A stretch of 55,080 nt of DNA, from assembly GCA_035480235.1 (NCBI GenBank), contig DATIHX010000011.1, positions 66,146 to 121,225 of the forward strand, written 5' to 3'. Below the pieces are notes generated by a model. That model made no database searches, was not told the origin of the DNA, and was given only the letters and a program-made list of their open reading frames with translations. Source of the stretch: Candidatus Saccharimonadales bacterium (GTDB taxonomy: Bacteria; Patescibacteriota; UBA1384; 2-12-FULL-50-11). The position numbers were made by a program, and so were the translations under genes. Within the stretch, counting starts at the first letter, position 1. Every line of letters begins with the position of its first letter. Below, one piece after another: positions 2,017 to 19,250 of the stretch.

Positions 2017-3153
2017 ATGAGAAAGCTTTGGCTGGCGGCGGCGATCATCGGTTTACTGTTACCGCTAGGTTTAGCTCGAGCCGCTGAATTCGCGACTAAC
2101 TCAAACGGCGACGTGACCGTCCCAGCCAGCGAGCATCACCATAATTTTTACACCGCCGGCCAAAGTATTACCGTTGACGCCGCAACCAGCGGCGATTTGG
2201 CGGCCGCCGGCCAAACTGTCGTGGTGAACGGCAACGTCGAAAATAGCTTGTTTGCGGCCGGCCAAACCATCAATCTGCGGGGAAACGTCGGCAATAACCT
2301 GCGCGCGGCTGGCGATAACGTCACTATTTCCGGCACTATAAACGGCGACGTTTTCGCCGCCGGTTCAACCGTTACCGTGACTAAGGACGCGGTAGTTAAT
2401 GGCGGTCTTTATACTGCCGGTTCAAATGTTGTTATTAACGGCAGCGTCAAGGGTGAAGTTCGCTCGGCCGGGGCGCTAACCATTAGTGGCCAGACCGGCT
2501 CGGTCACCAGTTACGGCGAACTGACGGTGAAGAAAACTGGCATCGTTAACGGCAACGTCAACGTTCACGCCGCCCAAGCGGCGACCATCGAAACCGGCGG
2601 CACCGTAACAGGCGTTAACCATTTCACTCTGGTCAAAAACCGAACTAATAACCTGGCGATTTTCAGTAGTTTCGCCGCCCTGGCCGGCTTACTCGGCTCG
2701 TTAATCCTGGGTCTGGTGCTAGTTTTCCTGCTGCCCAAACGCTGCCAAATTATCGTCGATAAAGCCCTGAGCGCGCCGACGGCGGCGATCGGCTACGGTT
2801 TGGCGCTGCTGATTGTCTTCCCGATCGCCATCTTCATTATCGCGATTACCTTGATTGGCTTGCCTTTGGCCATGCTACTTGGGTTAGTTTGGTTGCTACT
2901 AGCGGTACTGGGCGGTTTCATCGGCAAACTCGCCTTTGGCGCCTGGCTCTACCAGCTCGTTACAAAAAAACCGGCCGTCACTAATTGGCTGACCTTGCTA
3001 ATTGGCCTAGTCGCCAGCGCTTTGATCGGTTTTATCCCCTTCATCGGGCCGTTGGTAAAATTCGCCTTCTTCTTGTTGGGCCTCGGGGCACTCGGCCGGT
3101 ATTTTTGGGCGACCTTCCGCGCGGAACCGACCCCGGCTTTAGAGGCCAAATAA
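2017..3153 (+). CDS. Membrane protein with N-terminal bactofilin-like (polymer-forming beta-helix) repeats and a polytopic C-terminal domain
   Basis: 378 aa. Signal/anchor sequence, then iterated AAGQxVxVxGNV / AAGSxVxIxG repeats, then about 5 TM helices. Confidence 0.6.
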   Translation: MRKLWLAAAIIGLLLPLGLARAAEFATNSNGDVTVPASEHHHNFYTAGQSITVDAATSGDLAAAGQTVVVNGNVENSLFAAGQTINLRGNVGNNLRAAGDNVTISGTINGDVFAAGSTVTVTKDAVVNGGLYTAGSNVVINGSVKGEVRSAGALTISGQTGSVTSYGELTVKKTGIVNGNVNVHAAQAATIETGGTVTGVNHFTLVKNRTNNLAIFSSFAALAGLLGSLILGLVLVFLLPKRCQIIVDKALSAPTAAIGYGLALLIVFPIAIFIIAITLIGLPLAMLLGLVWLLLAVLGGFIGKLAFGAWLYQLVTKKPAVTNWLTLLIGLVASALIGFIPFIGPLVKFAFFLLGLGALGRYFWATFRAEPTPALEAK

Positions 3154-5232
3154 CTTATTGAAACGACGGCCGCGGATCGCTAAAGCCCCGGCCAGGAAAC
3201 TGGCCACTGCCAACGCCGCGGTTTGAGCGAAGTCGTTTTCTTGGGCGCCAGCAACTAGCGTCGGTTGGTTCGACCCAGCGGCGAGTGGCAACGAAGCGCC
3301 GGCAGCGGCGGCGACCGTTGAGCTTTTTTTGACTTGAGTGGTCAGAGTTTTGCCAACGGTTTTGGTGGTAGTCGAGCTGACGGCACTGGTGAGTGCAGCC
3401 GTCGTAGCGTTGATGACACCAGTAGCCGGGGCGCTAATCAAACTAGCGCCACTGCCTAAATACCAAGTTTCGATGGCGCCGCTCGACGAGTTGTAGTCGG
3501 TCACTAGCGGCAACTGGGCGAGTGAGCCGGCAGCATAGTTAAGAAGGTTGGTAGGGAAATGAAACTTTAAAAAGCCGCCAGCGGTCGTGAGGTTAAAGCT
3601 ATCGCTGGCGGTGGCGCTCAAGTTGGCCTTGACGGTGACGGCTTGGCCGAGGTGGTTAACCAGCTCATCGACGCCAAACTCACTCAACGGCCAAGTTTGA
3701 GCCGAACCGATCGCTAGATCGTCCAGCGCCGAAAGGATGAGCCGCTTGGTTTGACTGGTACTGATTTGACCGGTAGCGGTGGCTAATTTGTTAACACCGC
3801 CTGGTAGCGCGCCTTTGCTATTATCGAGAAAAACTTGAATTCCGCCGGTTTCGTCTTGCAGGTAAAGCGCTTCGCTACCAACGGCGCCGACCGGCACGCT
3901 GACTACCCCACTGATTTCGGCCAAGGCGTTAGCCGGTAGGCTGCGGGCCTCACCAATTGAGACGGTGTAGGTCGGTGCCGTTGGTAAGGTGACGCGCGAC
4001 CAAGATTGAAAATCGGTTGATTGATACAGGTTAGGGTTACTGGAAGAGTTGAGCAGTAAAATCAACCCGAGACCGGCTTGGGCGTAGACAGCCTGGAGTT
4101 GGCTGGAGCTGGCCCAGGCGCCGGTGACTTTTTTGAAGGCGTTAGTATTGTCGGCGGCAAATTGCACCAAGCTGGCACCGGGCTGCCAAGCCAACCAGCC
4201 GCCAGGCACTTTTTTCAGTGCCGTCAAATCGCCGTCGGTGGTCGCTAACTGCCAACTCTCCGGCCCGTCAGAAACAAAATAGCTTGGGCCAACTTTCACC
4301 AATAGCCGATTGGTGCCGTCCGCGGCCGCTAGGTTGGTCAAATCGCCGGGCGGCGCTGTTAAAACGTGGCTTGTTAAGCCGAACTCCCACCAACTCGCAT
4401 CGGAGAGCCGTAAAAAGACGCGGTCGGCCAGGAGTTTGAGGCCGGTCACGCTTCGGCCGGTTAAATTTAGAGCGAAAGTTTCTAGTAAATTACTGTGCCA
4501 AACATACAAGTTGTTGGCCGCGTCGGTGGCGGCAACTAAACCGCCGCCGGTTGTAATGTTTTGGACACTGACCGGGAAAAGCGGTTGGTAATTAGTGGGG
4601 TTTAACTGGTAGTAAAACTGGCCGTCGGCGCAACTAAAACCGACGAGCGGCGCCGTCACCAAGACGCTGCCGGCGCAAGGGAAGCTAGCCACCACCGGCC
4701 AACTGTGATTTTGCCACTGCAGCACCCGAACAAATTGATTGAACTGCTGGCCGAAAAACAGCTGGCCGCCGACCCGGTAGAAACGGTTGGTTTGGTCGAG
4801 GGCGATCAACGGGGCGGCCGTCAGCGGCATTAGGGTCCAGTCGTTAGTAATTTCGGTGGCGGCAAGGGTTTGGCCCGTTTGACTGCCAACAATTATCGCA
4901 TCGCCCAAGCTCTGAAGCGCCAAGGCGTCGCCCGAAATGTTGCCAAGCTCGGTGGCGGCCAGGCCGGTCGAGCGATACAGCTTGGTCAGCGAGCCGGTTT
5001 TAGCGGTAAAAACTAATTGGTTGCTGAAAACAATCGGCGCCGCACTCAATTGGTCGCTGGTTATGCTGGCCAGTTGCCAGGTTTTGCCGGGCGCGCGCAG
5101 CCGGTACAAATTCTGGTTGGTGGTGGCACTGACGGCTGAACCGAGGCTTTGAAGCGAAAAGGCCCGGCTGCCATTGGGAAGTAAAGAAACCGCCAATAAA
5201 GCGAAAATTGTGAGTTTTACCAAAGCCCGCAT
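3139..5232 (-). CDS. Secreted/cell-surface protein, beta-propeller-like N-terminal region, OB-fold-like segment, C-terminal TM anchor
   Basis: 697 aa. Signal peptide, recurring W-containing blades (WQLAS, WTLMPL, WQLATTDG, WSRVTLP) and the segment GVVSVPVGAVGSEALYLQDETGGIQVFL. C-terminal hydrophobic helix followed by RGRRFNK. Confidence 0.6.
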   Translation of the reverse strand: MRALVKLTIFALLAVSLLPNGSRAFSLQSLGSAVSATTNQNLYRLRAPGKTWQLASITSDQLSAAPIVFSNQLVFTAKTGSLTKLYRSTGLAATELGNISGDALALQSLGDAIIVGSQTGQTLAATEITNDWTLMPLTAAPLIALDQTNRFYRVGGQLFFGQQFNQFVRVLQWQNHSWPVVASFPCAGSVLVTAPLVGFSCADGQFYYQLNPTNYQPLFPVSVQNITTGGGLVAATDAANNLYVWHSNLLETFALNLTGRSVTGLKLLADRVFLRLSDASWWEFGLTSHVLTAPPGDLTNLAAADGTNRLLVKVGPSYFVSDGPESWQLATTDGDLTALKKVPGGWLAWQPGASLVQFAADNTNAFKKVTGAWASSSQLQAVYAQAGLGLILLLNSSSNPNLYQSTDFQSWSRVTLPTAPTYTVSIGEARSLPANALAEISGVVSVPVGAVGSEALYLQDETGGIQVFLDNSKGALPGGVNKLATATGQISTSQTKRLILSALDDLAIGSAQTWPLSEFGVDELVNHLGQAVTVKANLSATASDSFNLTTAGGFLKFHFPTNLLNYAAGSLAQLPLVTDYNSSSGAIETWYLGSGASLISAPATGVINATTAALTSAVSSTTTKTVGKTLTTQVKKSSTVAAAAGASLPLAAGSNQPTLVAGAQENDFAQTAALAVASFLAGALAIRGRRFNKLFGL

Positions 5233-5248
5233 ACCCTCGTTGTACAGA

Positions 5249-5256
5249 CATTTCTG
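5249..5256. repeat. Left 8-bp target-site duplication CATTTCTG
   Basis: Identical octamer abuts the outside of both terminal inverted repeats (5249-5256 and 10712-10719). Confidence 0.75.
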
Positions 5257-5281
5257 CCTACATATCCCCTTATGACAAGTA
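5257..5281. repeat. Left terminal inverted repeat (IR-L) CCTACATATCCCCTTATGACAAGTA
   Basis: The reverse complement of 10687-10711 is CCTACATATCCCCTCTTGACAAGTA, which matches at 23 of 25 positions. Confidence 0.8.
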
Positions 5282-5378
5282 GAACTGTTCTTAGCGCATC
5301 CCTTCTATGGAGCTGAAACTCAGCATCTTGTTTAAATTACTTAAAACGATCAGAGTTTAGTAAATGGAGGAAAAAATA

Positions 5379-5921
5379 ATGAGTTCAATTTCAAAGATAA
5401 TATTAAGCGTAATTGTCACGGCTCTAGTGGTTGGAAGCGGAACGTACTACTTGCTGAAAAATCAGTCAGTGGCCAAACCGACTACCACAACCGCTCCTGC
5501 CAAGGCTTTAACAGTCAATGAGCAGTTAGCTAGAGTTCTATCGATTGACGCCGAAGCAATGAATAAAATATTGCTTGAGGATGTTCTCAAGCCTACACTT
5601 GGCACGGTGACTTTAGTGGGGGTTAGTGAGACCAACAACTGTTCGGCCTTTGAGGGCGCTTGCGGCAGAACCTTAACCCAAGAAGAACACGATAGCATCG
5701 GCGTTCAAGACCCGTTATTTGTCTACGAAACCACCAAAGAGATTACTCCAACAGACATGAAAAAACTACAGAACCAGTTAAATAAGAGCCAGTATCCAGT
5801 TCAAGAAAGCACAGCCTCGTCAATCTTGGCTCACGGCGCCGGAGGAGATAACACATTTCTGTCAATTACCGCCGACGTCAACGACACGGGGCGCTTTCAG
5901 ATTAGAGTATTGGTCTACTAA
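5379..5921 (+). CDS. Hypothetical N-terminally anchored protein (element cargo)
   Basis: The ORF opens at 5364, but the ATG at 5379 has GGAGG 8 nt upstream. One TM helix, then a soluble domain. No recognisable motif. Confidence 0.5.
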   Translation: MSSISKIILSVIVTALVVGSGTYYLLKNQSVAKPTTTTAPAKALTVNEQLARVLSIDAEAMNKILLEDVLKPTLGTVTLVGVSETNNCSAFEGACGRTLTQEEHDSIGVQDPLFVYETTKEITPTDMKKLQNQLNKSQYPVQESTASSILAHGAGGDNTFLSITADVNDTGRFQIRVLVY

Positions 5922-5924
5922 AAG

Positions 5925-6416
5925 TTACTTAAATCCGGTTGCTGGATCAAAGCTAACGTAATTAGTGCCATCGAACTGCTCAAGCTGGATCTGACCCTGG
6001 TTAATTGTTACCAGTAGGCTGATCCGCTTATTAGGTTTAACTGTCAGCGAGTGAGGCTCACTGCTCTTTGGAAAAATTGGCAACGAATAAACCGTTTTGT
6101 TAGTAAAGCTCTGGAAGTTTATGCTCCTGATAGAGTAGTTTGCAGCACCCGACTGAGCAACTAAATCGCAGTGAAACGCTCCTGCTTGCGATGGTAAGGA
6201 CTTTTCCGGACAATCGCCGTTTATCAAGAGCAAACCCAACCCCGGCTGTCCATCTTCGAGCACGTTAATGTCTAGAGATGTAGTCAGTAAGTTGGCCTGC
6301 CCATTTGTTGTAGTTTCGAGTGCGTTGAGGCGGGAGTGAATAATTATTATGCCGCCAGCGATTAGACCGACTACTGCAAAACCAAACGTTATATATCGTA
6401 GGTAGCGTGTTCTCAT
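5925..6416 (-). CDS. Hypothetical N-terminally anchored protein, translationally coupled to the upstream 974-aa gene (element cargo)
   Basis: ATGA overlap: ATG at 6416-6414 shares bases with the TGA stop at 6415-6413. An alternative start lies at 6428. One TM helix plus a roughly 130-aa domain. Confidence 0.55.
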   Translation of the reverse strand: MRTRYLRYITFGFAVVGLIAGGIIIIHSRLNALETTTNGQANLLTTSLDINVLEDGQPGLGLLLINGDCPEKSLPSQAGAFHCDLVAQSGAANYSIRSINFQSFTNKTVYSLPIFPKSSEPHSLTVKPNKRISLLVTINQGQIQLEQFDGTNYVSFDPATGFK

Positions 6417-9337
6417 GAGCTCAGACATTCGTTATACCATTGCTGGAACTGCGGAACGACTACAGCTCCACTAGCATTTTGACCTTGAAGACGATGCAGT
6501 AAGTTATCCCGTTGAGTTAGCAAGTCGGTTGGCGGCGTCCCAATATTTTGCTGCCAATACGCAGTTATATTATTGAGTCGATCAATAACTTGTTGATGAT
6601 AGACGCAAATGCTCGATAGAGATGTTGCTAGCGATTCAGGATATTTATCAACGTTGGGATCAAGAAGATCGGCGGCAGAGTATCCAATAGTTGCAGCACA
6701 ATTTGAAGAAGATGTGTACGCGCAATTAAAGGCGGCGATATCCCAAAGCGTTCTGCCGGTCGGGCTGGCCAGTTGTTGATCGAGCGACTGCTTATAATCA
6801 GTGGAAGAAGCTGAAATAGGCACCTGACCTGAGCCGTAAGAATAGTCGAGGGCATGAAGCATTTCGTGATCCGCGGTAGTTTGCAGCAAATCACCACTCA
6901 TATAATTAACTTCACGCGAGTCTAAGGTAAGCCCTCTGTCGGGATGGGCGGGGTCAAAATACCCGTTAGGTTCGGATTTAATGTCGGAACCAATACGCAC
7001 GACAGTCAGGATGGTTAAGGGAAAGTTTTTCCAAGTCTTGTATCGAATCACTTCTTTTTGAACAGTAGGCAGGGTGTTTTTCCTACTGAGTTGAGTTGTG
7101 TCGGGCGTGTCGTAAAAACATACCTTAAAACTATTTGTGCTGAAGTCGTCACATTCTTTATGGATGAGCATCAGAAAATTTCCGGTGCTGATCGATGAAT
7201 TGTACGAAAATGAGGGCGGGTTATTCTGGTCTTGAGTGGCGTCATCCGGTCGTGTTTTTTCAGGCCAGGTGTAGACGACATCGCCTGAGACAGGACTTCT
7301 ATAAGCAAGAGCGGAAGCACTGATTAGATGGTATGTAGACTGGATTAGTAAGGGGTCGGTTTGGGATGAAAACGCCGCAATGCCGTTGGTGACATTGGTG
7401 CTAAATTGATGGCCGCTTGAGTTGGCGATTATTACTTTCCCGCCGAGCGGGGAAATTGAAGCGTAATTTTGATCGTAATACAATTCGTCTTTCGGTTGGG
7501 GAGAAATAATTAGCAATCCATCGAGACTGAATGTGGCATCGTAAATCCGGTTGGTATCCACGTGAACAGTTTGGGTCAGATTAGGGAAACTAACATCGCC
7601 CATACTAACCGTAAGAGTGTAATCTGCTGTGCCGCTAAGCAGGCTGATAACTGGAGCTACTATCGCTCTTCCTCTAACGTTACTAACACTTTGATAGCGG
7701 GTTGTGCCGCTGACTACCGTTAAAACGGCGCCCGTGACTGGGTGATTATCAGCCGAAGTCATTGAGGCGACAATTGCGGGGGCGGTTAGAAAATTGTCGG
7801 TTCGAGCGTCATTATTACCGTAATCCGTTTCAGGCACAGCATGAGTAGGGTTAACAATAAAATCGAGTCCAACAATATTATGGTGATTAAGGAGGGCTTC
7901 GCTTGCGAAAGCATTCGATAAAAGTTTAATTCGGTGATTGTCGGCAGAAAATACTAGGTTGGGAATGGTTGCTGATGAGTCGGGACTTATCGTGGTCGAA
8001 AGGCTGTCTGAATACTCGTACAGATGTTTGTTTGGCTCGTTACCGGGATCATAGAGAGAAAGTTGGTAGGGAGCACTTCCTTGAAAAGTCCCTGGACCTA
8101 AGTTTTTGATTTTCAGGCCGGAGATAGTAACACTCGAGATATTTGAGCCGAAACTTGCTCCCATTGGCAGATTGTCGTAGCTGTGGCCAGTAGTGTCTCT
8201 GAGCGTAACTGTTGCTCCACTAGAGTCAGGAGTTAGATCTGGCTGACCGATTGTCACTGTAGCTGACGCTGTTTTATTGCCGTTGGCCCAAGTGCCGGTG
8301 ACTGTGAAAGTAACTGTTTGGGTTAGAGCAGCTGTGGTTCTGCTGCCGCCAGAGACCGGGGTAACCGCCCCAATTCCTTGATCAATCGTCATTGAGGTTG
8401 GATTGCCGGTTGAACCCCATGTGAGAACTGTGGTTTGGCTGCTACCGAGGGTGGACGGGTTGGCGGTTAGGGATACAGCGTGAGTACTTTGCCAGGGCGA
8501 AGCGTTATACGTTGCCGTAACTGTGCCACTAATCCTCCCTGTTCCGGTTAAGGTAAAAAGTGTTTGTCGGGTAATCGAAAAACTGGTGGTAACGGTGTCT
8601 GTTTGAGGATCGGGACTGTTAATGTTGGTAACATCACCAACATTTTGATCAATAACTAAGCGACTATTGGTAGTATGGAGACCTTTGGCCCACCAGAGTG
8701 TCACGGTATTGTCCGTGCTATTAACTCGGCCGTTTAACGTGGCTGAGTTATCCCAACCGAACCGAGCTATAACTTGATGCGTCACCGTGCGGTAATACCC
8801 GAAACCATTAACGGTCGGCTGCCAGTTGCTGTTGGTTGTTTGGCAGTGCCAGCCAGTATATTGATCGATTGTATTTTGACCGCAATCGCGGAACCAGGCG
8901 GATGGATTATTCTGATAACGGTCATTAATCCATTTAGTTGAAACTGTTTGGCCCTGATGACCATCGTTAATGGTGCAACTACCAGTACTCGTGGCGGCAC
9001 AACTGGCCCAGTTTTGAGCAGTTGCGTAGTTGTAACCCGGTGGCGTGTAGTCGTTCTGGTTGCCAGTATATTCGGTTTTGAATTGGAGTAAGGCAAAGAC
9101 GGAATTATACGTTGCGGTCGTGTCGCCAAGTTTGCATTGTAAAACACTGTCAATATTCCCGGCCGCAACTTGGTTTAGTGTGCTTAGAAGATTGTTACAG
9201 CTTGTGATAGTCAGCGGTGGCGGGGTTTGAGCAAGGGCAGTATTTGTCGCCCTAGAACCAACTGAAAAGGCGGCGGCTATTAAGCTAACAATTATTAGAA
9301 TTCTAGCGAGCCCCCTCATATCTACTATTACAGTCAT
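6413..9337 (-). CDS. Large secreted multidomain protein with putative C-terminal zinc metalloprotease (HExxH) domain (element cargo)
   Basis: 974 aa. Signal peptide (ends AQ), a Cys/Trp-rich N-terminal module and two Ig-like repeats (TLxW...IDQxxGxVT...TQTxTFTxTGT). Then CARDB-like and carboxypeptidase-regulatory-like beta segments, and HEMLH encoded at 6854-6868. Confidence 0.75.
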   Translation of the reverse strand: MTVIVDMRGLARILIIVSLIAAAFSVGSRATNTALAQTPPPLTITSCNNLLSTLNQVAAGNIDSVLQCKLGDTTATYNSVFALLQFKTEYTGNQNDYTPPGYNYATAQNWASCAATSTGSCTINDGHQGQTVSTKWINDRYQNNPSAWFRDCGQNTIDQYTGWHCQTTNSNWQPTVNGFGYYRTVTHQVIARFGWDNSATLNGRVNSTDNTVTLWWAKGLHTTNSRLVIDQNVGDVTNINSPDPQTDTVTTSFSITRQTLFTLTGTGRISGTVTATYNASPWQSTHAVSLTANPSTLGSSQTTVLTWGSTGNPTSMTIDQGIGAVTPVSGGSRTTAALTQTVTFTVTGTWANGNKTASATVTIGQPDLTPDSSGATVTLRDTTGHSYDNLPMGASFGSNISSVTISGLKIKNLGPGTFQGSAPYQLSLYDPGNEPNKHLYEYSDSLSTTISPDSSATIPNLVFSADNHRIKLLSNAFASEALLNHHNIVGLDFIVNPTHAVPETDYGNNDARTDNFLTAPAIVASMTSADNHPVTGAVLTVVSGTTRYQSVSNVRGRAIVAPVISLLSGTADYTLTVSMGDVSFPNLTQTVHVDTNRIYDATFSLDGLLIISPQPKDELYYDQNYASISPLGGKVIIANSSGHQFSTNVTNGIAAFSSQTDPLLIQSTYHLISASALAYRSPVSGDVVYTWPEKTRPDDATQDQNNPPSFSYNSSISTGNFLMLIHKECDDFSTNSFKVCFYDTPDTTQLSRKNTLPTVQKEVIRYKTWKNFPLTILTVVRIGSDIKSEPNGYFDPAHPDRGLTLDSREVNYMSGDLLQTTADHEMLHALDYSYGSGQVPISASSTDYKQSLDQQLASPTGRTLWDIAAFNCAYTSSSNCAATIGYSAADLLDPNVDKYPESLATSLSSICVYHQQVIDRLNNITAYWQQNIGTPPTDLLTQRDNLLHRLQGQNASGAVVVPQFQQWYNECLSS

Positions 9338-9385
9338 CTTTTATGGTTCGGTTGTCAACGAAATTTGGCCGTAAATGGATTAGTA

Positions 9386-9411
9386 AACGGTATCAGGCCT
9401 GATACCGTTTT
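9386..9411. terminator. Perfect 12+12 palindrome AACGGTATCAGG/CCTGATACCGTT followed by TTTT
   Basis: Read directly. It lies between the transposase and the 974-aa cargo gene. The T-run is on the + strand, so its role is uncertain (insulator or terminator). Confidence 0.4.
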
Positions 9412-9833
9412 GGGTACTTTTTCAGGTTATGTTTTTAAGAATTACTACGTTTTATATAAATATACCCGTCCAAAATGTAACAACCGTTGTTACAAAATTG
9501 AAACTAACTACTGGCTAGAAAAAGAAAAATCGTGAGTCCTTTATATATACATATTGATGCAGCTGTTGCACCAAAAAAGATCAGCTGCTGATCCTAAATC
9601 TCGATCAATTCCAGATACACTCAACAAAAAAGTGGAGTCCTTATAAATATATATTCATATTCATCGTTCTGCCTCTAAAACAATTCTGCTAAAGTAACCA
9701 CACATGGACAAGAAAAAACCTCAAAATCAAAAACCACAACCAGAGCCAACAATAGAACCAAAAAAATCAGTAGACGAAAAATACCTCCCCGACACAACCG
9801 AAGAAAAATTTACTGACTTACTGCACAAAGCGA

Positions 9834-10661
9834 TCAAACCCGGGCAATCAGTTCCTGAAACAGAGACCGAGTCGGACCAAACCGATGGTTATAGTGAAAA
9901 AGATACATCTCCAGATAACTCTGAAGATACTTCCGTCTAACAGCGCCATTGTAAGTTCCAAGTAACCCTCGTTTCATAAAGCTCCACAAGCCGTCGATAT
10001 AGCCGGTATGAATATCTTTACTACGGACATATTCGCCGTCTTTGTGCTTAATTGCTTCGTGCTGGTATCCGTGACGGCCTAAGAGTGAGTAGGCTATGTG
10101 CTCATCCGTAATAACTCGGCTATTCTTCTCAACATGTTCAAAAACAAACTTGAAATAACTAACCGGATGGTAGGCTTCCGTTTGTTTGATGCGAGCCTTA
10201 CCTTTTCGCTCGACAACTCCGACAACAGTCGCTTTGCTGCGTAAATCTTTACTCCCTTTCTGCTTACCGCCAACATACATTTCATCGGCCTCGACAGTGC
10301 CAGTTAGTTGATTGTTCGGGATACTTTCGGCCATAAGTTCTCGAATCTTCCGAGCCATTCGCCAAGCGCACTTGTAAGTGACACCCAACTGTCGCTCAAG
10401 TTCTTTAGCACTGACCCCGTTTTTAGCAGCAGAAAATAGATAGACGGCATAGAACCAGTCTGTTAAGCGCGTCGAGGATTTTTCAAAAATAGTACCTTTG
10501 AGAGGGTGGATTTGCTTGCCTTCGCCATTGGCGTAGCACTTACGTTTACTAACACGATAATAGCTTTTAGCGAGCTGCGGGTATTTGGCCTTGAAAACAT
10601 AGTCCAGACAAATATCATCAGTTGAGAACTGGGCCCTAAAGTCTTTGATCGTGTACTTCAT
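9834..10661 (-). CDS. tnp: IS1595-family (ISXO2-like) DDE transposase
   Basis: MKYTIKDF... start (the ORF extends to a TTG at 10679). WFYAVYLF...GVSAKELERQLGVTYKCAWRMARKIR helix-turn-helix, EADEMYVGG, VITDEH, IDGLWSFMKRG...YLxxYLxMYLFHYNHR. Confidence 0.85.
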   Translation of the reverse strand: MKYTIKDFRAQFSTDDICLDYVFKAKYPQLAKSYYRVSKRKCYANGEGKQIHPLKGTIFEKSSTRLTDWFYAVYLFSAAKNGVSAKELERQLGVTYKCAWRMARKIRELMAESIPNNQLTGTVEADEMYVGGKQKGSKDLRSKATVVGVVERKGKARIKQTEAYHPVSYFKFVFEHVEKNSRVITDEHIAYSLLGRHGYQHEAIKHKDGEYVRSKDIHTGYIDGLWSFMKRGLLGTYNGAVRRKYLQSYLEMYLFHYNHRFGPTRSLFQELIARV

Positions 10662-10686
10662 ATATCCAATATCTCTCAAGCCATAT

Positions 10687-10711
10687 TACTTGTCAAGAGG
10701 GGATATGTAGG
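10687..10711. repeat. Right terminal inverted repeat (IR-R)
   Basis: Reverse complement matches IR-L at 23/25 positions. Confidence 0.8.
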
Positions 10712-10719
10712 CATTTCTG
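10712..10719. repeat. Right 8-bp target-site duplication CATTTCTG
   Basis: Identical to 5249-5256. Confidence 0.75.
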
Positions 10720-10748
10720 ACGGTCAACAAGCTGCTGGTGCGAGCGAG

Positions 10749-11342
10749 CTAGCTCGAGTCGTCGCCGCTGGCGCCGCGGTGCAGCTCGATCACTAAACGG
10801 GCCAGCCGGTTGGGGTCGGGGACGTCCTTAATCGTAAAATAACCGCCCAAACCTGGATGATTTTCGTTGTCGCTAGTGCCTTCACCGGCCGTTTCAATCA
10901 CCAGCAACCCGTAGTTAAACAGGCTCTGGAAAAAGCCTTCCATCCGAGCCGAGACGTCTTCAATTTGGGCCAGGCCAAGCTCGGAGACTTCCCGCGACAG
11001 TAGCCCGAGCTGGGCCACGTTAATAATCCGTTCGTTGGTGATGAAGATGACGTCGTAGTAATACTCTAGCCAGGCGCCGAAAAGAAAAGTTAGCAAAAAC
11101 AGATAAAACGACGAACTGATTAAAAGAATAATTGTTCGAGCTTCGTTGAAAGTGTGGGGAAAGGCCAACGGCCCGATGATGTAAACCAAGATTGGAAAGA
11201 TCGCCATCGCCAAAACAATCAGTAATGTGCCTAAAAAGCCGGCTGGGTGCTTGCGGACCACCGCCTGAATTGTTTCGGCCGGATGAAGCGATAAAAAGAG
11301 AAAGGCCGGGTCGTTTTGGTTAACCGTCGTGGTTATTGCCAT
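10749..11342 (-). CDS. Membrane protein with bacterial PH (bPH_2/YdbT-like) domain
   Basis: 197 aa. Two TM helices, then FITNERIINV...IEDVSARMEGFFQSLFNYGLLVIETAG, which is typical of bPH domains. Confidence 0.6.
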   Translation of the reverse strand: MAITTTVNQNDPAFLFLSLHPAETIQAVVRKHPAGFLGTLLIVLAMAIFPILVYIIGPLAFPHTFNEARTIILLISSSFYLFLLTFLFGAWLEYYYDVIFITNERIINVAQLGLLSREVSELGLAQIEDVSARMEGFFQSLFNYGLLVIETAGEGTSDNENHPGLGGYFTIKDVPDPNRLARLVIELHRGASGDDSS

Positions 11343-18827: not shown

Positions 18828-19250
18828 TTGTTCGGTTCTGCTATGTTGACGCCAATGGGGTACGAGACTAGCTCAACTGGTGAGTTTATCAGGAGGTATA
18901 AAACTGAGTTTAACCAATTGAAGCCGGTCAAATGCGCCACGATTGGCGAAAAAGTCCATTTTAATATGGTCGGATTTAAACACTTAATTTACAAGGGCCA
19001 ACATCGCCGACCAACGAAAGTGATATTCAACCGCCTAGTCTTGATCCCGCTAATTATTCCTACCTTGAAGAACGCCGCGGAAATTCTCGAGACAAGAATC
19101 CGTAAAGAAGTGGTTGACGGTAAGAAAGTTGAGGTTATGTATCATGCTCTTGAAGCAAAGGTCGGCCGAAAAAGTGTCCACATTCGGGTTGTAGTCAGAA
19201 AAATTGGCCAAAAAGGCCAATTTCACTTCTTTAGCATTATGAAGTACTAA
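18828..19250 (+). CDS. Hypothetical basic protein
   Basis: 140 aa with a non-ATG (TTG) start. No motif I can assign. AT-richer sequence. Confidence 0.4.
   Translation: MFGSAMLTPMGYETSSTGEFIRRYKTEFNQLKPVKCATIGEKVHFNMVGFKHLIYKGQHRRPTKVIFNRLVLIPLIIPTLKNAAEILETRIRKEVVDGKKVEVMYHALEAKVGRKSVHIRVVVRKIGQKGQFHFFSIMKY

Follow-up and report, generated by a model that had tools for sequence, protein, structure and literature searches.

The question raised by this locus is how a secreted protein of 974 amino acids (aa) with an HExxH motif relates to a much smaller, membrane-anchored protein whose start codon overlaps the stop codon of the large gene. The locus lies in a stretch of 55,080 nucleotides (nt), hereafter the window, from a Candidatus Saccharimonadales bacterium (assembly GCA_035480235.1, contig DATIHX010000011.1, positions 66,146 to 121,225); the window makes up the final 55 kb of its contig, which is 121 kb long, and the genome comprises 681 kb in 11 contigs and is 87% complete. 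The small protein, of 163 aa, is a true obligate partner of the large one. On balance, and with only slightly better than even confidence, the two genes form a family-specific operon for a surface gluzincin-type protease that would be docked or regulated by its anchored partner. In this genome the operon is a passenger of an IS1595-type insertion sequence (IS). The two genes and the segments of their products are the following.

6413-9337, minus strand: large secreted multidomain protein, 974 aa (968 aa in the gene caller's version, which starts from M7)
9227-9337, minus strand: predicted signal peptide, aa 1-37, ending TNTALA/QTPPP (hydrophobic maximum at aa 9-27)
8771-9226, minus strand: Cys/Trp-rich N-terminal module, aa 38-189, with six Cys (ITSC...C pattern)
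8210-8770, minus strand: two Ig-like units with weak mutual similarity, aa 190-285 and aa 286-376 (shuffle test)
7778-8209, minus strand: CARDB-like beta-sandwich, aa 377-520, ending PETDYGNN (conserved ETDYGNN motif)
7274-7777, minus strand: two further beta-sandwich segments, aa 521-606 (carboxypeptidase-regulatory-like) and aa 607-688 (assigned by domain order)
6416-7273, minus strand: C-terminal gluzincin-like domain, aa 689-974 (family alignment and AlphaFold2 model)
6854-6868, minus strand: HEMLH (H824, E825, H828), followed by the invariant D831 (family alignment)
6635-6637, minus strand: E901, candidate third metal ligand, in an ExxA motif (invariant, residue E213 of the domain, at the start of a long helix)
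6413-6416, minus strand: ATGA stop/start overlap of the large gene and the partner gene (minus-strand sequence)
5925-6416, minus strand: partner, 163 aa, with a basic N-terminus, one transmembrane helix and a beta-rich extracytoplasmic domain of about 115 aa (alignment of 13 partners)

Much of this layout agrees with the initial annotation of the window, which was made from the sequence without database searches. The 974-aa open reading frame (ORF) is found at 6413-9337 on the minus strand, the minus-strand letters of 6413-6416 read ATGA and open the 163-aa ORF at 5925-6416, and HEMLH lies at nt 6854-6868 with four Cys downstream (C872, C880, C911, and C971). The N-terminal module described there as rich in Cys and Trp has six of each in aa 38-195. 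The C-terminal region had been put at roughly 200 aa; the domain measures about 286 aa.

The pairing of the two genes is strict. A total of 16 loci was examined, namely the window, three related genomes (G008, G005, and G004), nine pairs on eight contigs from metagenomes or metagenome-assembled genomes, and three distant members; in all 16, the partner gene lies directly downstream of the large gene on the same strand. The genes overlap by 1-32 nt in 13 pairs and are separated by at most 5 nt in the other three. The partners are 152-186 aa long, apart from one of 299 aa in G005, and are mutually homologous (13 were aligned and three more homologues were added). G61, C69, C83, and G141 are invariant in the partners, as is A32 among the 13 aligned, and the shared plan consists of a transmembrane helix of about 20 residues with a conserved [RK]-x-x-A juxtamembrane motif and of the Cys pair C69/C83. 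An alternative ATG at 6428 would lengthen the partner in the window to 167 aa. The helix was also considered as a cleaved signal peptide, a reading that was rejected on account of the 20-residue hydrophobic stretch and the aromatic residues at position -3 of the conserved Ala. Two of the pairs stand in tandem in locus L038 (GCA_034680565.1, JAXOUH010007973.1, 371-7090), in which genes for 934 aa and 160 aa are followed by genes for 916 aa and 166 aa; the two pairs are strongly diverged, and each large gene has its own divergent partner.

No family is recognised for the partner. The partner domain gives no Pfam match in the 13 partners, and the sole Pfam match, Big_7 in one member, presumably reflects an extra C-terminal Ig-like extension of the 299-aa partner of G005. 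A profile of the partners has no match in the PDB, and a word-indexed search returns nearly nothing other than the query. Furthermore, hhalign finds no domain common to the partner profile and the large protein, and the partner contains neither a peptidyl-prolyl isomerase (PPIase) motif nor a thioredoxin motif and has no similarity to a known inhibitor family.

The predicted catalytic character of the large protein lies in its C-terminal domain and becomes visible only through its relatives. In a word-indexed search of 5.8 billion proteins, the 974-aa protein matched only itself. A six-frame search of related genomes gave two full-length relatives, of 1110 aa in G008 and of 1024 aa in G005; searching the genomes with a profile then added one of 727 aa in G004, and a three-sequence search for related loci returned only two loci already found. 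A family profile was built from the last ~286 residues of three proteins and used in an exhaustive HMMER search of 1.84 billion representative proteins, of which only 27 match at E <= 1e-3. In all 27, which are 590-1110 aa long apart from a few fragments, the domain is C-terminal. Of the 162 genomes searched in the class, four have the pair, all in one family (4 of the 19 genomes of that family), and none of 400 other genomes sampled across the phylum has it.

Alignment of 22 of these sequences, with a mean column identity of 25%, leaves ten residues invariant: C729, C740, H824, E825, H828, D831, W865, E901, C911, and C971. In addition, A904 (domain A216) is present in at least 90% of the aligned sequences and R949 is nearly invariant. 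HExxHxxD is found in 24 of 25 family members, the full motif being HExxHxxD-[YWFND] inside one continuous helix, and the family signature reads HExxHxxD, 72 residues, ExxA. Judged from the aligned sequences, such a signature is a gluzincin-type arrangement that is hidden in a single sequence. The initial annotation had noted neither a metzincin nor a thermolysin-type signature; the former holds, and a metzincin is rejected here because the family motif has no Gly at +3 and no third His, but the latter is wrong at the family level, where an invariant Glu lies 72 residues past HExxH. In the neprilysin family, the motif is likewise HExxHxxD, with an Asp three residues past the second His. When the protein and two profiles were compared with PDB sequences, no significant match emerged; those to a ricin-B lectin (E 0.02), protein kinase A (E 0.08), and projannalysin (E 0.58) were treated as noise. 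The best peptidase match of the relatives is SprT-like and located at the motif (E 0.0028, 17.9 bits), below the cut-off of 25.6.

The predicted structure points in the same direction as the signature. With the 22 sequences, AlphaFold2 gives a model with a predicted local distance difference test (pLDDT) value of 92.4 and a predicted template-modelling score (pTM) of 0.89, compared with a pLDDT of 41 when three sequences are supplied. In the model, HExxH is situated within a helix (domain residues 127-145) with a five-stranded sheet upstream, and E901 opens a long helix (domain residues 210-234). Among the top 50 Foldseek matches in the PDB, which score weakly, only gluzincins appear (M1 ERAP1, IRAP, and APN; M61; EryP), with a best probability of 0.98. 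In a viral structure library, an M34-annotated endopeptidase ranks first with a weak score, and SprT-like, IrrE-like, and 'metallopeptidase'-annotated entries follow amid many uncharacterised ones, also with weak scores. The protease reading of the initial annotation is supported to this extent: the HExxH region is part of a conserved domain whose confident model matches mainly zincin and gluzincin folds. The model reads as a new sequence family with a zincin/gluzincin-type core and a substantial family-specific elaboration.

Compared with the gluzincins of clan MA(E), namely M1 (ERAP1, IRAP, APN), M61, M4 (thermolysin), M13 (neprilysin), and M34, the predicted domain has the same helix-borne HExxH, a Glu from a later helix, and an upstream sheet, and it shares with the neprilysin family the Asp three residues past the second His. 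However, it has no profile match to those families, and its fold similarity is partial (template-modelling (TM) score of 0.34). In the model, a helical insert occupies the 72 residues that separate HExxH from the Glu. Two invariant Cys pairs of disulfide type are present, in keeping with a domain located outside the cell, and the domain is always C-terminal behind a stalk and belongs to one family of the candidate phyla radiation (CPR).

The remainder of the large protein is built as a signal peptide, a Cys-rich head, and a beta-sandwich stalk in front of the catalytic domain. The description of three proteins of the locus as anchored or secreted agrees with their hydropathy, each having a single N-terminal hydrophobic segment, with Kyte-Doolittle 19-residue maxima of 2.15, 2.36, and 2.25 in the 974-aa protein, the 163-aa protein, and the 185-aa product of a neighbouring gene, respectively. 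The signal-peptidase-like pattern AxA/(Q or H) is kept in relatives of the large protein and reads ALA/Q in the window. A hydropathy scan detects no hydrophobic segment outside the signal peptide; the large protein is therefore without an apparent membrane anchor of its own. The Cys/Trp module with ITSC...C is common to the G008 protein and several family members. The two Ig-like units are present as the initial annotation had it, but its wording of them as clearly repeated is too strong: the Smith-Waterman score of one unit against the other is 75, compared with 38 +/- 7 for shuffles (z = 5.3), and self-BLAST of the large protein finds no repeats. In the CARDB-like segment, E503, D505, N508, and N509 are invariant in the full-length alignment, and the corresponding region of relatives gives sub-threshold CARDB matches (E about 1e-3). 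For the segment that follows, the relative P0019 has a CarboxypepD_reg match above the Pfam cut-off (E 3.5e-10), and P0011 and P0022 have weaker ones; because P0019 stands outside the full-length alignment, the equation of aa 521-606 with this region rests on domain order. The large protein of the window itself matches no Pfam or NCBIfam family at E <= 0.1 and no toxin domain.

The following mechanism would account for the pair. The large product would be exported by Sec and its signal peptide probably cleaved, leaving a head rich in Cys, a stalk composed of beta-sandwiches of the Ig-like, CARDB-like, and carboxypeptidase-regulatory-like kinds, and a predicted disulfide-stabilised C-terminal catalytic domain, in which zinc would be held by H824, H828, and E901 and E825 would act as the general base. 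Simultaneously, the partner would be made in step with the large protein through translational coupling and stay in the membrane by its N-terminal helix, with the small beta-domain exposed outside the cell. There it may bind the large protein one-to-one as a docking or regulatory subunit, holding an otherwise unanchored enzyme on the producer, possibly in a latent state. The enzyme would cleave extracellular proteins or peptides, for example on the surface of a host bacterium or in the surroundings, and such cleavage would fit an organism unable to make most building blocks. A docking or regulatory role is favoured because the large protein shows no anchor of its own, the pairing is universal, and even a catalytically dead member of the family keeps its partner. 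In that member, P0021 (L057:3-1128, JGI 3300003316), the first His is replaced by Tyr, the catalytic Glu by Gln, and the Glu ligand by Ala (YQxxH ... AAFAGE), and the overlapping partner gene is kept despite this loss. From these substitutions, the pair looks like a pseudo-enzyme version, and the retention of the partner makes a structural or docking role more likely than inhibition alone.

Several observations weigh against this interpretation. By sequence profile, the domain has no link to a peptidase family of MEROPS or Pfam, and the PDB fold matches are weak, with a best E of 6.6e-3, TM scores of 0.27-0.35 (0.34 for the best), and a root-mean-square deviation of about 13 Å. For a gluzincin, the 72 residues that separate HExxH from the Glu are a long interval. 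The argument from the dead member comes from one partial protein at a contig end, P0021. Furthermore, effector-immunity and protease-inhibitor pairs, too, typically have an enzyme gene with a small overlapping gene behind it.

That last point leads to the alternative that retains the most weight, possible although rather unlikely, in which the large protein acts as a proteolytic weapon, either diffusing or delivered by contact, and the anchored partner is its cognate inhibitor, shielding the producer and not serving as an anchor. The small overlapping downstream gene, the pairing in 16 of 16 loci, the divergent partner belonging to each tandem copy, and, in this genome, the joint transport of the two genes by a transposon are all consistent with such a system. 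The serralysin AprA, for instance, is inhibited by AprI/Inh, its neighbouring small protein. The partner, being small, beta-rich, disulfide-containing, and membrane-held, also recalls the potempins, which are small anchored proteins. They are lipoproteins with an outer-membrane anchor and 98-132 residues in Tannerella forsythia, whose genes lie beside those of their target KLIKK peptidases (PMC9890683). In both the KLIKK/potempin and the AprA/AprI systems, as here for the predicted peptidase, the gene of a secreted peptidase adjoins that of a small (about 100-130 aa), beta-type, membrane-held protein, which in those systems is specific in its action on the neighbouring peptidase. However, potempin genes are upstream ones whose lipoprotein products sit in the outer membrane of a diderm, whereas the partner gene here is downstream and overlapping and encodes a protein that a transmembrane helix holds in a CPR cell. 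No sequence similarity links the partner with the potempins or with other known inhibitor families, and it is kept by the member with lost catalytic residues. No secretion-system or toxin-delivery genes lie beside any pair; around the pairs other than that of the window, the family-matched neighbours are housekeeping genes and many neighbours are unmatched. In addition, a large protein released in this way would have no other means of staying on the cell.

A broader proposal combines both roles: the pair would serve episymbiotic CPR bacteria as a surface weapon or feeding device particular to their lineage, a stalked new zinc protease under the control of the partner, which docks it while protecting the producer, and IS1595 would move the module between Patescibacteria genomes. 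This proposal is doubtful as a whole; if true, the element would be among the rare documented instances in which a transposon carries an interaction module from one Patescibacteria genome to another.

The partner could instead be a membrane-anchored steric chaperone or maturation factor, like the lipase-specific foldase Lif, or like PrtM for PrtP, that would act a single time, when the exported enzyme folds or forms its disulfides, and would be no stable subunit. In lipA-lif operons, a coupled gene behind that of an exported enzyme encodes a one-to-one partner that is anchored by its N-terminus and faces outward, and the translational coupling and outward-facing N-terminal anchor found here are of that kind; in addition, the two invariant Cys pairs of the catalytic domain would need correct pairing. 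Nevertheless, the alternative is improbable, as Lif is helical and about 340 aa long, whereas the partner is about 160 aa, has a beta-rich ectodomain of about 115 aa unlike known foldases, and shows no homology to Lif, no PPIase or thioredoxin motif, and no family match.

The preferred reading as a docked protease could also fail at the enzyme itself. The HExxH domain would then be a zincin-like binding module, a pseudo-enzyme, or a hydrolase of peptidoglycan or glycoconjugates, and the large protein mainly an adhesin. The weakness of the fold matches, the resemblance of the beta-sandwich stalk and Cys-rich head to adhesins, and the loss of catalytic residues in one family member speak for this possibility. 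It is nonetheless given little credence: the top 50 PDB fold matches all belong to active zinc peptidase families, HExxHxxD is kept in all but one of 25 members, and the His, Glu, His, Asp, and Glu are invariant in 22 sequences at about 25% identity, which argues for conserved catalysis.

In this genome, the protease operon lies within a mobile element of 5.46 kb, the remaining features of which are listed below.

5249-5256, no strand: left 8-bp target-site duplication, CATTTCTG (identical octamer at the right end)
5257-5281, plus strand: left terminal inverted repeat, CCTACATATCCCCTTATGACAAGTA (27-nt arms, 93% complementary)
5364-5921, plus strand: N-terminally anchored orphan protein of 185 aa (180 aa from the ATG at 5379), with a CxxxxxxC motif (ORF list)
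9338-9833, no strand: AT-rich spacer (35% GC) from the transposase gene to the cargo, with a hairpin and a palindrome inside
9577-9595, minus strand: terminator-like hairpin in the spacer (spacer analysis)
9834-10679, minus strand: IS1595-family transposase, 281 aa (matches to hidden Markov models, HMMs)
10687-10711, minus strand: right terminal inverted repeat, with a TTGACA -35 hexamer facing the transposase gene (repeat search)
10712-10719, no strand: right 8-bp target-site duplication, CATTTCTG, directly outside the inverted repeat

The transposase matches DDE_Tnp_IS1595 (PF12762) with E 5.5e-27 and the NF033547 model with 169 bits against a cut-off of 75. The 25-nt inverted repeat has two copies only, both in the window, in the whole 681-kb genome, with none expected by chance, and the element, like its transposase gene, is single-copy. 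Its GC content of 45.1% compares with 51.4 +/- 2.0% in genome windows of the same size, of which only 0.2% are as low, and the low GC is common to all four element genes. The cargo block of 4.4 kb lies between the transposase gene and one end. In three other, related genera (G011, G007, and G001), one uninterrupted operon encodes the CHAP hydrolase and the 65-aa, bPH, and 697-aa proteins, the bPH gene abutting or overlapping the homologue of the 697-aa gene, and these loci represent empty sites. Because of the inverted repeats, the duplication, the transposase, the low GC, and the empty sites, the element is a genuine passenger-carrying IS1595-type transposon inserted into a conserved operon. 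The operon of the pair, together with an unrelated orphan gene, would have arrived as passenger DNA between two genes of this conserved cell-wall operon. A composite of a short IS and a solo end was considered as well and rejected, there being no internal copy of the inverted repeat.

That the repeats and the duplication arose by chance or assembly artefact around an operon native to the site is scarcely credible. The element and transposase are single-copy, the zinc ribbon of the transposase is degenerate relative to that of G018, and the other pairs are chromosomal with no transposase among their called neighbours, all of which would suit such an explanation. It would, however, have to accommodate inverted repeats of 25 nt (0 expected by chance), an exact direct repeat of 8 bp, a GC content below 99.8% of same-size windows, flanking operons uninterrupted in three genera, and the IS of G018, a relative whose inverted repeats are similar but whose cargo is different.

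The orphan gene was taken by the initial annotation, as a 180-aa protein, to be divergent from the partner gene and part of a three-gene cassette. The two genes are in fact convergent, their 3' ends lying 3 nt apart, and a conserved cassette of three genes is rejected: the large gene and its partner co-occur in 16 of 16 loci, but the 185-aa gene is never beside the pair in the other loci. The 185-aa protein retrieves only itself among 5.8 billion proteins and has no similarity to the 163-aa partner. As the initial annotation found, neither small protein can be assigned to a family, with no Pfam or NCBIfam match at E <= 0.1. Distant anchored relatives of the 185-aa protein exist elsewhere in the class, for example one of 30% identity in G024, which adjoins an ORF that is radA-like by its translation alone. 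The gene is real and is cargo of the element, outside the conserved pair.

The claim of a mobile cassette holds for this genome, where the pair is IS1595-type cargo, but not for the 15 other pairs, which have no transposase among the genes called around them. The identifiable neighbours of those pairs are housekeeping genes (polA, a Mur ligase, signal peptidase, rnpA/yidC, and ribonucleotide reductase), and several of the loci have neighbours in common. Among the pair neighbours, many of which are without a family match, no delivery-system family (type VI or type VII secretion system, contact-dependent inhibition (CDI), or Rhs) and no toxin family is found. The pair is normally a chromosomal accessory operon.

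Members of the IS1595 family with passenger genes have been termed 'transporter IS' (Siguier, Gagnevin & Chandler 2009, as cited in PMC7986276). The present element resembles them in passing the IS1595 HMM cut-offs, in its inverted repeats and 8-bp duplication, and in having its passengers between the transposase gene and one end. It differs in a 4.4-kb cargo that includes the predicted surface protease operon of a CPR bacterium, in being single-copy, and in a zinc ribbon that has lost three of four Cys.

The fold class, the protease-partner operons, and the passenger-carrying IS1595 elements are of already known kinds. The catalytic-domain family beyond curated models, its obligatory anchored partner, and its confinement to one CPR family are new. 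Much of the diversity of bacteria belongs to the Patescibacteria, which live attached to other microbes, and a function has been assigned to very few of their surface proteins. If the predicted activity is confirmed, the pair would constitute a new peptidase family and a new enzyme/partner arrangement in a monoderm-like, ultra-small cell, as well as a candidate route by which CPR cells process host or environmental proteins. Carriage by IS1595 shows that such modules are movable as passengers even in genomes of ~0.7 Mb.

Some further observations concern the element and its surroundings. The insertion (5232-5256 / 10720-10749) parts the gene of the 697-aa envelope protein from the CHAP/65-aa/bPH operon, and expression of the 697-aa gene here may depend on a promoter inside the element. 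This gene (3139-5232, minus strand) is present in 18 of the 19 genomes of the family and has a GC content of 56%, compared with the genome mean of 51%. In the spacer, a perfect 26-nt palindrome (AAACGGTATCAGG/CCTGATACCGTTT) at 9385-9410, ~50-70 nt upstream of the start of the large gene, could be an operator or a bidirectional terminator.

A related IS1595-type element is located in G018 (locus L029, G018:C23, 1454-3805), with a transposase 46% identical, similar 25-nt inverted repeats, and a different passenger, a 317-aa gene without a Pfam match. Compared with the transposase of G018 (CPKC...CLHC), three of the four Cys of the N-terminal zinc ribbon are lost in the window; to judge from this degenerate ribbon, the element may no longer be self-mobile. 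A 78-aa ORF at 9704-9940 on the plus strand, antisense to the 3' end of the transposase gene, has a counterpart at the same position in the IS of G018 (L029:2249-2422, minus strand; EEKFTDLLHKAIKP versus KDKFHDLLKKAAQP) and may be a small protein that this IS group conserves. Large polyvalent protein-associated domain 3 (LPD3) is usually found on mobile elements, and a 140-aa ORF of the window at 18828-19250 on the plus strand has a sub-threshold match to it (E 2.5e-5, 24.9 bits against a cut-off of 27).

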